Assembly (NCBI GenBank): GCA_000002435.2
Contig: CM018792.1
Source of the DNA: Giardia intestinalis
Lineage: Eukaryota
Length of the DNA stretch: 64,000 nucleotides
Strand: one strand, 5' to 3'
Positions 59,077 to 62,789 of the stretch are shown in pieces. Positions within the stretch are counted from its first letter, which is position 1, and each line of letters starts with the position of its first letter. The notes under the pieces were generated by a model, which saw nothing but the letters and a program-made list of their open reading frames with translations, ran no database searches and was not told the origin of the DNA. Made by a program: the position numbers and the translations under genes.

Positions 59077-59164
59077 TGTTTCTTATTTCTCTTCACTCCC
59101 TTTAATGTAAATTGCCAAAGTGGGTCAAAACAAAAACCGAACAAAAAGTGCAGAATTGCGCACC

Positions 59165-61291
59165 ATGTTAACCACAACCCTGGCAACCCAAGATTGTAGC
59201 CAGCTACAGCGGCAGCTGGATCTCATGGAGGTCGACCTCAGCGTAAATAAGGAAGAAGGAGACGCGGTTATCAGAATGAACGATCAAATTATACGGCAGC
59301 TGAAAGCGGAGAATACCACCCTGCGTCAGCAAGCAACCGCCATGGCGCGTTCATTTTCACTGAATGCGAATCCAGAGCGCGTCCAGCGTGAAATATATTC
59401 CCTGGCACGCGAGGTAGACAATCTGGGGCATAAGCGCAAACGTCTCGAAAAGCAATTGGCACTTATTCGTGAAAAGGAGCCTCAATTCACAGATGCATTC
59501 CTGGATTCCATAACGCCCACGGGCCGCTCTCTTAAGAAGGAAGCAGAGTACATATCATGTGTCCAGAAGGGATGTATAAGACGCAACCCTAATACCGTTG
59601 ATTTGACATCCAGTGACGTCTTTAGGACACTAGAGAAGCGACGGGACGAAGTTGAGCTGAAATATAGAGATGCAAGGGCCCTCAACGATTTATATACCAA
59701 GCTGCGCAGACAGCTGCAAGAGCAATCCGTGCTATATGATAAGCAGATACGGCAGTGTAAGACTGTGCTTTCAAATAACGAGGACGCGTGCCGCCGAATG
59801 AGCATAATAGCAGAGGAGGCTGTTCTCTCTTCCTTTGACATGGATAACACTCTCCAGACAGAGAAAATGAACGCAACAATGAAGAAAGCAGATAACCAAC
59901 AGAAGTTAGAGGAGAGGCGAGAGCAGGTGCGTATTGCAATGGCAAGCGCAATGCCCAGGTCCCCAACCACTGCACGACCGTCCGCAGAGCCTGCAGACGA
60001 CACAACCATCATCACCATGGAGGAAGAAACGATAGAGGCCTATTGTAAGCGAATGTTTTTGACACGCATCTGTACAGAGACAGGCCTTACGAAGATAGAT
60101 CGCTTTGCAGAGGTTGCAAAGCAGCAGCAAGTAGAAAATCAAAGATTGGATGCGTTGTCCCATACTCTCAGTGAAAAGGATGATGCAACAAAGAAATCCA
60201 TCACGACGATCCTCCAAGTTCTCACAGATACAGAGTACATGCTCGACTCACACACTTCCGTGTTGCATGGAAACGTGTCAAAGCTGAGAGATTCTATTGA
60301 TGCTGCAAAGCATGAGTTTGCCCAGACCAAAGATAAAGCCAAGAGTGTCGATAGCCTTATAAATGCAATAAATACTGGCCTCCAAACGCTTCTAGACAAG
60401 CTCCTTTTGGTAAAGGCCCCGCCACTTTCAGAGCTACAGACGAAAAAAGGCTTCGAAGATCTCTTTTCAGACATGCCTGACAATATAAAGGACATAATAG
60501 CTTACTACGGGAGTGAAGCAGGCAACGCCGATGCTGCTTTGCTGCTCGAGAACGAGTTCCAGCAGATAGTCAGCATGGCCCTGGTCATCGTTAGTAAGCT
60601 GATCACCCTCAAGGAATTTAGAATTCGTGCCGGAAGCAGTAGTTGCGCTGCATCTATTAACAATAGTTCAATCTTGGAGACGCAAGGACTGCCAATGCTG
60701 CCTCTGAACTCTCAACTAGTCGCTGATCAAGGCGCAGAGCCTGCAGAGGGTGGACTTTACAAGACAGAGGAGAAAGGCGCTGAAAGTGCTGAAGAGTACT
60801 TCAACCAGATCCTTGGAAAAGCTGACGCACAACCAGAAGGACCGGCTGTTCCTGCAGAGGTGGAGGCCTCTCCAGTGAACAACGTCGAGGCTCCCGTACT
60901 TGTTCGCACTGCTCCAACCGGAAGAACGCTACTCTCAATAACAAAGGCAGACATTTTTGGCAAAACAACAGATAAGAAACTTACCATGGATACTCTCGGC
61001 GATGATGCCTTGTTTGACTCTGATGAAGACGATTATAATTACAACGCTATTGTACAGGACGACTGTACCGGTGATAACATGAAGATAGATCTTCCTTGGG
61101 ATAGGCCTGCGTCCAAGGCACCTATCCCTAGCAGGACGTCTGCAAAGATCAGTGCCCGCAATGAGAGGATAAGGCGCATACCGCAAGTGTTGCGAGAAAA
61201 AGACCCCATGGATCGTGACGTTATTAAAAGGGCCTCTGAGGCTATTGTACGCATGAACATGGTAGCAGAAGAGGATAAGCAAGAGCAGTAG
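59165..61291 (+). CDS. Coiled-coil protein (708 aa from first ATG), acidic low-complexity C-terminus
   Basis: The track ORF starts at GTG 59120; the first in-frame ATG is 59165 (MLTTTLATQDCSQLQRQLDLMEVDL...). It carries heptad-rich segments throughout the N-terminal 450 aa. I cannot assign a domain. Confidence 0.65.
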   Translation: MLTTTLATQDCSQLQRQLDLMEVDLSVNKEEGDAVIRMNDQIIRQLKAENTTLRQQATAMARSFSLNANPERVQREIYSLAREVDNLGHKRKRLEKQLALIREKEPQFTDAFLDSITPTGRSLKKEAEYISCVQKGCIRRNPNTVDLTSSDVFRTLEKRRDEVELKYRDARALNDLYTKLRRQLQEQSVLYDKQIRQCKTVLSNNEDACRRMSIIAEEAVLSSFDMDNTLQTEKMNATMKKADNQQKLEERREQVRIAMASAMPRSPTTARPSAEPADDTTIITMEEETIEAYCKRMFLTRICTETGLTKIDRFAEVAKQQQVENQRLDALSHTLSEKDDATKKSITTILQVLTDTEYMLDSHTSVLHGNVSKLRDSIDAAKHEFAQTKDKAKSVDSLINAINTGLQTLLDKLLLVKAPPLSELQTKKGFEDLFSDMPDNIKDIIAYYGSEAGNADAALLLENEFQQIVSMALVIVSKLITLKEFRIRAGSSSCAASINNSSILETQGLPMLPLNSQLVADQGAEPAEGGLYKTEEKGAESAEEYFNQILGKADAQPEGPAVPAEVEASPVNNVEAPVLVRTAPTGRTLLSITKADIFGKTTDKKLTMDTLGDDALFDSDEDDYNYNAIVQDDCTGDNMKIDLPWDRPASKAPIPSRTSAKISARNERIRRIPQVLREKDPMDRDVIKRASEAIVRMNMVAEEDKQEQ

Positions 61292-61310
61292 TAGTGCATA
61301 CTACATTTAC

Positions 61311-62687
61311 TTAGGTCCTGAGAGGAACCTCCCATATGGAATTGCAGGACCACATGACTGCGTCCCGGACAGCGTCAGAATCTATGTTCTGGATTGCCTC
61401 ACTCATTTCTTTGAGTAAATTGTCCGTGTCCGAAGACTGTTGCTGAGCATCCAGAGCCTGGACTGCGGCGGTCATCTGGGGCGTGAGGTACTCTAGTGGT
61501 GATAAATCTGCAAGCGCTCTATGTCCTGTAACTACATAGCCTCGCTGCTGTAGAGCCATATCTGCCGTAACGGTCAATGGAACATCGTCAAATATTACGA
61601 AGATAACGTCTGGCCACTCGGCAAAGTGTGCAAGCATCGCTGCAATCCATTGATCGATTGCAACCGGGCCAGGTTTTCCAATCAGAAACTGGTTGAAAAT
61701 CATTGGTTTTTCTAATTCAATTGGTGGAGCTCTATTAAGCCCTGTGACAGTGGCTATCTCTGGGCCTTGCCTGGTATAATTCGGAGGGAATCCCGCGATG
61801 GCTGTCAAAGCAGTCAACTTCGTGATTGACTTTCGTGAAAAGGAGTGCTTAGAGCGTAGCGACACCCCGTACTGTCTGTAAGGCCCAAAGTGCCATTCTG
61901 ACACGTTGATGTAGATAAGTAAGCGTGAGTAGTCGTCGCTGATGAGAATGTCTTTCGATGAAAGAAAATCGGTGGCGTCCTTCAGGGCATGGTTCAGGCT
62001 ACGGAAGAACGAGAGGCGCTCTTGTCGGGACAAGCTTCTCGCCCCTGCCGCGCTATTTTGTCGGGCACGACTTAGTTTAAGAGGAATACGAACGTTAAAG
62101 GCGGGCACATCGCGACGCCGAAGAGCACGGCTGATTGTCGGAACGGAGATTGGCCTCTGCGCAGCCGCCAAGGCCTGTGATGCCTCCATTATTGTGCCAC
62201 CAGGTTTCTGCAATGTCTCCATAATTATTCTGCCAGCTTCGTCGTTGATCATAGGACGTCTGCCACGCGTCTTTGGCTGAGTAATGTCGTCACCCTTTCG
62301 CAACCGCCAGAGGAGGGATCGGACACTAGAACTCTTGATGTTGCACTTCTTTGCATACCAGTCGAAAGGCTGCTGCTCATGGTATTGGGTCCAGAGCTCG
62401 ACCAGCTGTTTCTTTGCAGAAATGGTTATTGTGGCCCTACCCGCATCGGCTCGACGCTTCCGTGGAGACGCCTCTACTGCCGTGCTAGCTGTCGGCACCG
62501 GGGGTGGAGACGTCCCAATGGACTCCATCGGGATGGAGAAGAGGAGGTCTTGCGCTACTTGGCATTGGATGCCCAGCGGCGATTCACCAAGAGAAATGGA
62601 AAGCATGTCCTCCCTTAGGGCGTCTGACTGCAGGGCAGGCTGGTTCGAGGCATGGGCCGTTTTATTTCTCTTTAAGCGATCGTCCAT
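61311..62687 (-). CDS. Tc1/mariner-like (pogo-like) DDE transposase-like protein with N-terminal helix-turn-helix regions; no terminal inverted repeats detected, so possibly a domesticated gene
   Basis: 458-aa ORF with ATG at 62685-62687. The N-terminal region has two HTH-like segments (ISAKKQLVELWTQY...AKKCNIKSSSVRSLLWRL; RGRRPMINDEAGRIIMETLQKPGGTIMEASQAL...ISVPTISRALRR). The C-terminal region matches the Tc1 DDE_3 layout: RLSFFRSL...ILISDDYSRLLIY (first D), VIFVIFDDVPLT (second D), and LADLSPLEYL (E about 32 aa after the second D, as in DD34E). Flanks are only 19 bp on the 3' side and 102 bp on the 5' side before neighbouring genes, and I found no convincing TIR. Confidence 0.6.
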   Translation of the reverse strand: MDDRLKRNKTAHASNQPALQSDALREDMLSISLGESPLGIQCQVAQDLLFSIPMESIGTSPPPVPTASTAVEASPRKRRADAGRATITISAKKQLVELWTQYHEQQPFDWYAKKCNIKSSSVRSLLWRLRKGDDITQPKTRGRRPMINDEAGRIIMETLQKPGGTIMEASQALAAAQRPISVPTISRALRRRDVPAFNVRIPLKLSRARQNSAAGARSLSRQERLSFFRSLNHALKDATDFLSSKDILISDDYSRLLIYINVSEWHFGPYRQYGVSLRSKHSFSRKSITKLTALTAIAGFPPNYTRQGPEIATVTGLNRAPPIELEKPMIFNQFLIGKPGPVAIDQWIAAMLAHFAEWPDVIFVIFDDVPLTVTADMALQQRGYVVTGHRALADLSPLEYLTPQMTAAVQALDAQQQSSDTDNLLKEMSEAIQNIDSDAVRDAVMWSCNSIWEVPLRT

Positions 62688-62789
62688 CTGTTGTTAAATA
62701 TGAACAATGTGTTGGCAATTTAGGCCTGCACACTGTCCAAAATTTTAAGTCCATTAAATGTTATATTTACATACAATTTGAAAACAGGT

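Follow-up and report, generated by a model that had tools for sequence, protein, structure and literature searches.

GL50803_3211 is a gene of Giardia duodenalis (G. intestinalis) that lies near the end of the window studied here (64,000 nucleotides of contig CM018792.1). It is annotated as a "hypothetical protein" and has no precomputed Pfam domain. Our results make it probable that the gene is a molecularly domesticated transposase of the Tc1/IS630 type, i.e. of the Pfam DDE_3 lineage. Judging from the sequence, its product most likely acts in the nucleus, where it would bind specific DNA sequences and have no transposition activity. Of the two possibilities, an active element or a domesticated transposase, an earlier note on this DNA had favoured the latter; the results on ancestry, terminal inverted repeats (TIRs), synteny and selection support that preference. 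Co-option as either a DNA-binding protein or a nuclease had been proposed; the conserved features described below favour the former, and the latter is the less likely option because the catalytic triad is broken at its first position.

Relationship to DDE_3 transposases

The comparisons made here indicate that GL50803_3211 descends from a Tc1/mariner-type cut-and-paste transposase. Direct profile searches did not detect this. The Pfam scan with HMMER, which the earlier note had named as a check, gave no match to DDE_1, DDE_3, HTH_Tnp_Tc5, HTH_psq or CENP-B_N even at E≤10, and these profiles were likewise unmatched at E≤10 in the three orthologues from other Giardia lineages; neither DDE_3 nor DDE_1 reached its gathering threshold in any of the four proteins. 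Their only Pfam match is HTH_32 (E 0.013–0.044), which is below threshold; in GL50803_3211 it is found at residues 137–189 with E 0.044 and 14.8 bits, the threshold being 33.7. Neither an NCBIfam scan nor a sequence search of the PDB produced a usable match for the single protein, and a word-indexed homologue search with a mixed alignment (A2) returned Giardia proteins alone.

Relatives were found with phmmer, which was run exhaustively against 1.84 billion representatives. Seven non-Giardia proteins were matched with library-wide E values of 2e-6 to 8e-4, and four of the seven carry Pfam DDE_3 (E 1e-18 to 1e-24). A further search, seeded with the relative P0007, led to P0020 from the oxymonad (metamonad) Monocercomonoides exilis (locus L008), where it is named "putative DDE superfamily endonuclease"; the other relatives (P0005–P0009, P0015 and P0019) are metagenomic. 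The DDE_3 score of the relatives is 66–85 bits. Pairwise identity to the Giardia protein is 19–22%, and BLASTP of GL50803_3211 against P0020 gives E 7e-15 with collinearity over residues 88–456. In the multiple alignment the proteins are collinear from residue ~85 to the C-terminus, i.e. homology extends along the whole length of a Tc1/mariner-IS630 transposase. Near the N-terminus they have in common the pattern WYA..(T/C)(G/N)I(R/K), followed by LRKG(E/D)DIT.P.K(R)GR(K/R)P.

Profile–profile comparison gave the same result. A profile built from the Giardia proteins alone was aligned by hhalign with that of six relatives at a probability of 99.6% and E 1.1e-24 over 320 columns (residues 83–453 against 82–410). 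The significance of the HMMER matches comes mainly from the helix-turn-helix (HTH) region, and the C-terminal domain was therefore tested alone. Residues 255–458 matched the DDE domain of eight relatives (probability 96.2%, E 2.8e-9, 169 columns) with a score of 61.4, the best of 40 column-shuffled controls being 21.4. A DDE-transposase fold is thus not supported by Pfam directly, but it is supported by hhalign and by intermediate sequences. Regarding the Tc1/pogo affinity suggested earlier, the Tc1 part stands in the form of Tc1/IS630-type DDE_3 proteins, and every relative found belongs to DDE_3. Pogo/CENP-B ancestry was considered and rejected because DDE_1-type matches are absent at E≤10.

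At least two of the relatives are true transposons with long TIRs. The M. exilis gene is bracketed by TIRs of 59 nt that are 95% complementary and end with TA followed by CAGTCTGTCC on both sides; both TIRs start with TA followed by CAGTCTGTCCGTAATTAATGTTGATC and contain an internal direct repeat. TA together with CAGT ends is a hallmark of Tc1/mariner elements. The stretch L008:3735–5891 (LSRY02000039.1) is apparently a complete Tc1-like element of ~2.15 kb with an intact 370-aa DDE_3 gene and ends of TA followed by CAGT, each TIR holding two direct repeats of ~20 nt (inverted repeat–direct repeat type, as in Sleeping Beauty). On the ENA metagenome contig k141_52714 (L006:1–3456) two related Tc1-like elements are adjacent. 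One is intact with 88-nt TIRs (98%), and the other has 163-nt TIRs (91%) and a transposase split into two open reading frames (ORFs), which points to a multicopy, decaying family in the source organism. TIR searches on the contigs of two further relatives gave GA-rich low complexity alone on L015 and found none on L016.

Predicted structure agrees with the assignment. AlphaFold with only the four Giardia sequences reached a predicted local distance difference test score (pLDDT) of 36, and a ten-row alignment that included relatives was used for the model. The resulting AlphaFold2 model has a pLDDT of 70–93 across most of residues 85–458. Its three best structural matches are Mos1, Sleeping Beauty and SETMAR, its C-terminal part has the RNase H-like fold, and its HTH pair matches the paired domain of Pax5 with a probability of 0.99. 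The architecture of two N-terminal HTH regions and a DDE-type domain, read earlier from the sequence, is thus borne out by model and profile alignment. More specifically, the N-terminal part has the bipartite, paired-like form, with helical bundles at residues 89–130 and 149–191 and the RGRRP linker between them. It is in this region that the relatives are most similar in sequence; the first HTH has a pLDDT of 88–93 and is matched to transposase N-termini by both phmmer and hhalign. In the transposases the linker reads LRKGEDIT.P.KRGRKP, and G132, G142 and P145 are kept in Giardia as well. Two insertions are specific to Giardia: residues ~238–253 (SSKDILISDDYS), immediately before strand beta-1, and the ~28 residues at 301–328, which stretch the first spacing of the triad to 105 residues (79–81 in the relatives).

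The active site

Alignment indicates that the catalytic triad of GL50803_3211 is broken at its first position. The YIDE(S/T)SW motif of the relatives aligns without gaps with YINVSEW of Giardia, and the alignment continues through a common YG motif; MAFFT, hhalign and BLASTP agree on this, as do the full-length and domain-only hhalign runs. The first catalytic Asp is thereby replaced at residue 261, which is Asn (AAC/AAT) in three Giardia lineages and Ser (AGT) in the fourth (P0004). By comparison, D367, D368 and E399 are invariant across the four lineages, and the profile-to-Mos1 alignment places D367/D368 and E399 at catalytic positions of Mos1 (D249 and D284). The spacing is N(105)D(30–31)E as compared to D(79–81)D(32–34)E in the relatives. 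The DD(~32)E triad considered plausible in the earlier note is therefore correct for its second and third residues and not for the first. A candidate for the first residue, D251/D252 (ILISDDYS), was rejected because all three alignment methods put this segment in the low-confidence, Giardia-specific insertion and YINVSEW aligns gap-free with YIDESSW.

The degeneration extends beyond the triad. Six relatives have 34 invariant columns in common, and Giardia departs from them in 23, among which are the Glu after the first Asp, the His of DNAxxH, YS and N in YSPELNPIE, and G.WK. By comparison, Giardia retains the conserved columns of the HTH region (L95, Y111, G132 and G142). The DDE transposases and integrases that have been characterised lose catalysis when any one of the triad residues is mutated, and it is likely from the sequence that GL50803_3211 has lost catalysis.

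The strongest alternative is that the domesticated protein is still a nuclease. It would then nick or cut DNA at specific sites in the manner of SETMAR, using its N-D-E site and perhaps E264 or D251/D252 in addition. SETMAR, which is among the top three structural matches, retains nicking activity with a DDN triad. Together with the invariant D367, D368 and E399 and the purifying selection on the RNase H-like domain (pN/pS 0.11–0.18, see below), this gives the nuclease explanation some weight. It is nevertheless unlikely in our view: position 261 varies between Asn and Ser and is thus not kept for metal binding; the adjacent Glu, the His of DNAxxH and the G.WK motif after the Glu are all lost; and the established effect of triad mutations on DDE enzymes argues against activity. 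Clearly less probable is a further possibility, that the protein is a chromosomal factor, essential and specific to the lineage, which binds relic sites resembling transposon ends (e.g. centromeric or subtelomeric) and may perform site-specific nicking with its N-D-E residues. If this were true, Giardia would have a transposase-derived tool for chromosome organisation or for recombination between its two nuclei.

Selection on the gene

Codon alignments of the four Giardia lineages (six pairs) were analysed by the Nei–Gojobori method. Nonsynonymous divergence (dN) is 0.085–0.129 and synonymous divergence (dS) 1.3–2.8; dN/dS is 0.046–0.072, the ratios being approximate because dS is saturated. 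The proportion of synonymous differences (pS) reaches 0.62–0.73, and the reading frame is intact in all four lineages. Compared by the ratio of nonsynonymous to synonymous proportions (pN/pS), the HTH region is the most constrained part and the N-terminal tail the least (Table 1). These values show a pattern of strong purifying selection. The ratios are equal to or below those of the neighbouring genes, so that GL50803_3211 appears to be as constrained as its housekeeping neighbours, which supports a host function. The domestication is older than the split of the four lineages.

That the ORF is a decaying, functionless relic or a mis-annotation is very improbable. Its annotation as hypothetical alone, the lack of Pfam domains and the degraded active site would suit such a status. 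Against it stand the frame kept in four lineages despite the high pS, a dN/dS (0.05–0.07) as low as that of the Sec1 and coiled-coil neighbours, and a polyadenylation signal at the stop codon and AT-rich stretch before the ATG.

Immobility of the locus

GL50803_3211 appears to be an immobile, single-copy gene in the 64-kb window, in the contigs compared and in the protein search. Within 2.5 kb around the gene, the TIR search gave chance-level pairs alone. The best inverted repeat flanking the gene is 12 nt long with 83% identity (61298–61309 and 62755–62766) and ranks 24th of 41 similar pairs in this region; its left arm overlaps the AGTAAAT polyadenylation-type signal. Note that the TIRs of the relatives are 59–163 nt long. 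The lack of TIRs reported earlier is thus confirmed, and this chance-level pair is the candidate that had been put forward at that time. The gene has no element ends that would define a TA target-site duplication. No second copy was found in the window by tblastn and blastn, and the exhaustive phmmer search found no Giardia paralogue.

The position of the gene is fixed. All 24 examined contigs of assemblage A that encode the identical protein have the same neighbours. The order cytidine deaminase – Sec1 – GL50803_3211 – convergent coiled-coil gene – proteasome subunit is found in assemblages A and B and in two further lineages, i.e. a syntenic single-copy orthologue is present in each of the four. 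Amino acid identity between orthologues of different lineages is 77–84% (80% and 77% for the two further lineages). The latter, L005 and L007 (Logan SRR17450160 and ERR3333378), differ from A and B as much as A differs from B (77–80% at the amino acid level here). As far as these comparisons go, the transposon's ends as well as its autonomous mobility have been lost, and neither multiple nor polymorphic copies were seen in the material covered.

It is hardly credible that GL50803_3211 is an autonomous Tc1/mariner transposon, present as a single copy and active now or until recently. In favour of such an element is the full-length uninterrupted frame with both HTH domains and a DDE-like domain. 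However, TIRs and the first catalytic Asp are absent, and the short flanks (19 and 102 bp) also hold signals of the neighbouring genes. Moreover, the gene has kept its position and its neighbours in four lineages that are saturated at synonymous sites. Equally implausible is an unrelated, Giardia-specific protein with a chance resemblance to transposases, for although there is no significant Pfam match and identity to the relatives is only 19–22%, the hhalign E values (1e-24 at full length; 2.8e-9 when the C-terminal domain is taken alone, its shuffled controls being clean), the library-wide phmmer E values down to 2e-6 and the collinearity across every domain contradict it.

Proposed history and function

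Based on these results, a cut-and-paste element would have integrated into the genome from which the Giardia duodenalis species complex descends. Members of its family may still move in other protists, among them the metamonad Monocercomonoides. The TIRs would have been lost and the transposase gene retained as a host gene. We suggest that the protein enters the nucleus by means of SPRKRR at residues 74–79, an invariant basic cluster and candidate nuclear localisation signal. It would then bind specific DNA through its bipartite paired-like HTH and GRPR-like linker, which are its most conserved part. The degenerate RNase H-like domain probably serves as a structural, dimerisation/oligomerisation or scaffold module and not as an enzyme, in the way of CENP-B-type and SETMAR-type proteins. 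We infer both the nuclear DNA-binding function and this role of the C-terminal domain from conservation and predicted fold.

Several points weigh against the interpretation as a domesticated DNA-binding transposase. The direct Pfam scans fail, and the assignment therefore rests on transitive and profile–profile homology. The structural match is not independent of this sequence link because the relatives were part of the alignment used for the model. With D367/D368 and E399 retained and the C-terminal domain under purifying selection, a residual metal-dependent activity is conceivable. No orthologue was seen outside G. duodenalis in a search that covered annotated genomes, and none of the papers searched names GL50803_3211 or GL50803_003211.

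The mobile elements described in Giardia are three families of non-LTR (long terminal repeat) retroposons (PMC2875222), in agreement with what the earlier note had stated. A RepeatMasker comparison from 2025 lists long interspersed nuclear elements for G. intestinalis, and DNA transposons for Spironucleus salmonicida (29) and Hexamita inflata (2676) (PMC11787283). In the literature on Giardia and transposases (DNA transposon, DDE, Tc1) we found no description of GL50803_3211. Set against this retroposon-only record, the gene provides molecular evidence that a Tc1-like DNA transposon probably once invaded the lineage. By its homology, GL50803_3211 would be the first sign that Giardia once had a DNA transposon, a relic where none has been described.

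With this result a conserved "hypothetical protein" is annotated for the first time, in a genome that is among the most reduced of eukaryotes. A DNA-binding protein that derives from a transposase and is under strong purifying selection could reasonably be considered as a regulator or chromatin factor specific to the lineage. Eukaryotes have commonly domesticated transposases. The finding is not surprising in principle, and it leaves the general picture unchanged.

The gene and its surroundings

The features of the gene are collected in Table 1. The product of the ORF in the window is identical to the annotated protein and reads from ATG to TAA; the coordinates and the length of 458 aa had been given correctly in the earlier note, as had the sizes of the flanks, which follow from the stops of the neighbouring genes. 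The 3' flank of 19 bp (61292–61310) extends to the stop of the convergent gene at 59120–61291 (+), and the 5' flank of 102 bp to the stop of the upstream minus-strand gene. This neighbour (62790–63989, minus strand) is truncated by the end of the window, and its orthologues carry Pfam Sec1. The AT-rich stretch directly before the ATG resembles the short promoters of Giardia and may act as one. AGTAAAT at the stop codon fits AGTRAAY, the polyadenylation consensus of Giardia.

In the interval 61289–61313 the stops of the two convergent genes are 19 bp apart; with such spacing their 3' untranslated regions must overlap. For the minus-strand gene, there is also an overlap between AGTAAAT and the stop codon. 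The product of 59120–61291 is a conserved protein without Pfam domains. Its ORF of 723 aa begins with GTG, which is probably an artefact of mechanical ORF calling because shorter proteins are called in assemblage A contigs (708 aa) and in other lineages (690–712 aa). Two antisense ORFs inside GL50803_3211, at 61942–62280 (+, 112 aa) and 62284–62697 (+, 137 aa), are likewise mechanical and putative only.

Table 1. Features of GL50803_3211 and its flanks, with the constraint measured in each part
Feature	Position	Strand	Basis	pN/pS
Complete coding sequence of GL50803_3211, 458 aa and TAA stop	61311..62687	-	ORF and identity to annotated protein	
AGTAAAT, overlapping the stop codon	61305..61311	-	fits poly(A) consensus AGTRAAY	
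Upstream intergenic region, 102 bp, with AT-rich stretch CATATTTAACAA (62691-62702) directly 5' of ATG	62688..62789	-	sequence	
N-terminal tail, residues 1-84, predicted disordered, least constrained part	62436..62687	-	pLDDT ~30	0.2-0.3
Basic cluster SPRKRR, residues 74-79, invariant in four lineages	62451..62468	-	alignment columns S74-R79	
First three-helix HTH (PAI-like), residues 85-131; helices 89-105, 108-115, 119-130	62295..62435	-	model	
Inter-HTH linker G-DDITQPKT-RGRRP, residues 132-148	62244..62294	-	GRPR-like basic motif common to relatives	
Second three-helix HTH (RED-like), residues 149-191; helices 149-159, 166-175, 182-191	62115..62243	-	model, hhalign	
Linker with long helix 221-243, residues 192-255	61923..62114	-	alignments, model	
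RNase H-like (DDE-type) domain, residues 256-458, collinear with DDE_3 domain of relatives	61314..61922	-	alignment, model	
Giardia-specific low-confidence insertion inside RNase H-like domain, residues ~301-328, ~28 aa	61704..61787	-	alignment, model	
Codon AAC, N261, position of first catalytic Asp of relatives	61905..61907	-	three alignment methods	
Codons GAC GAT, D367-D368, position of second catalytic Asp	61584..61589	-	DNAxxH motif, His lost	
Codon GAG, E399 (SPLE), position of catalytic Glu of NPIE	61491..61493	-	alignment	
N-terminal tail, residues 1-82				0.2-0.3
HTH region, residues 83-200, most constrained part				0.06-0.09
Linker, residues 201-245				0.2-0.3
RNase H-like domain, residues 246-458				0.11-0.18
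Sec1 and coiled-coil neighbours				0.10-0.17

Comparison with known systems

P0020 of M. exilis and its relatives are like the Giardia protein in having the first HTH, the LRKG.DIT..KRGRKP linker, the second HTH, the RNase H-like domain, the second Asp and the Glu. They are unlike it in having an intact D(79–81)D(32–34)E triad and in passing the Pfam DDE_3 threshold, and in at least two of them the gene lies between long TIRs (of 59, 88 and 163 nt). The Giardia gene differs from this family by N/S in place of the first Asp, by the two insertions, by a disordered tail of 84 aa, by the lack of TIRs and by its fixed locus. Mos1 and Sleeping Beauty are enzymatically active, their DDD/DDE triads being intact and TIRs their substrates; their identity to the Giardia protein is only 11–13%. 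GL50803_3211 lacks four defining features of active Tc1/mariner elements: a match above the Pfam threshold, an intact triad, TIRs and, in the material covered, further copies.

SETMAR (Metnase), a primate gene derived from the mariner element Hsmar1, is fused to a SET methyltransferase domain, whereas the Giardia gene stands alone. Moreover, the substitution in SETMAR is at the third position of the triad and in Giardia at the first. The genomic binding sites of SETMAR are the Hsmar1 TIRs. CENP-B and Abp1, Cbh1 and Cbh2 of fission yeast are domesticated pogo-derived transposases of the Tc1/mariner superfamily that bind specific DNA via an N-terminal HTH pair and retain a catalytically degenerate DDE domain. 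Being pogo-derived, they belong to DDE_1, HTH_Tnp_Tc5 and CENP-B_N, and the Giardia protein matches none of these profiles. By analogy, GL50803_3211 most likely works in the way of the domesticated proteins SETMAR and CENP-B/Abp1, while having arisen outside the pogo/CENP-B lineage.

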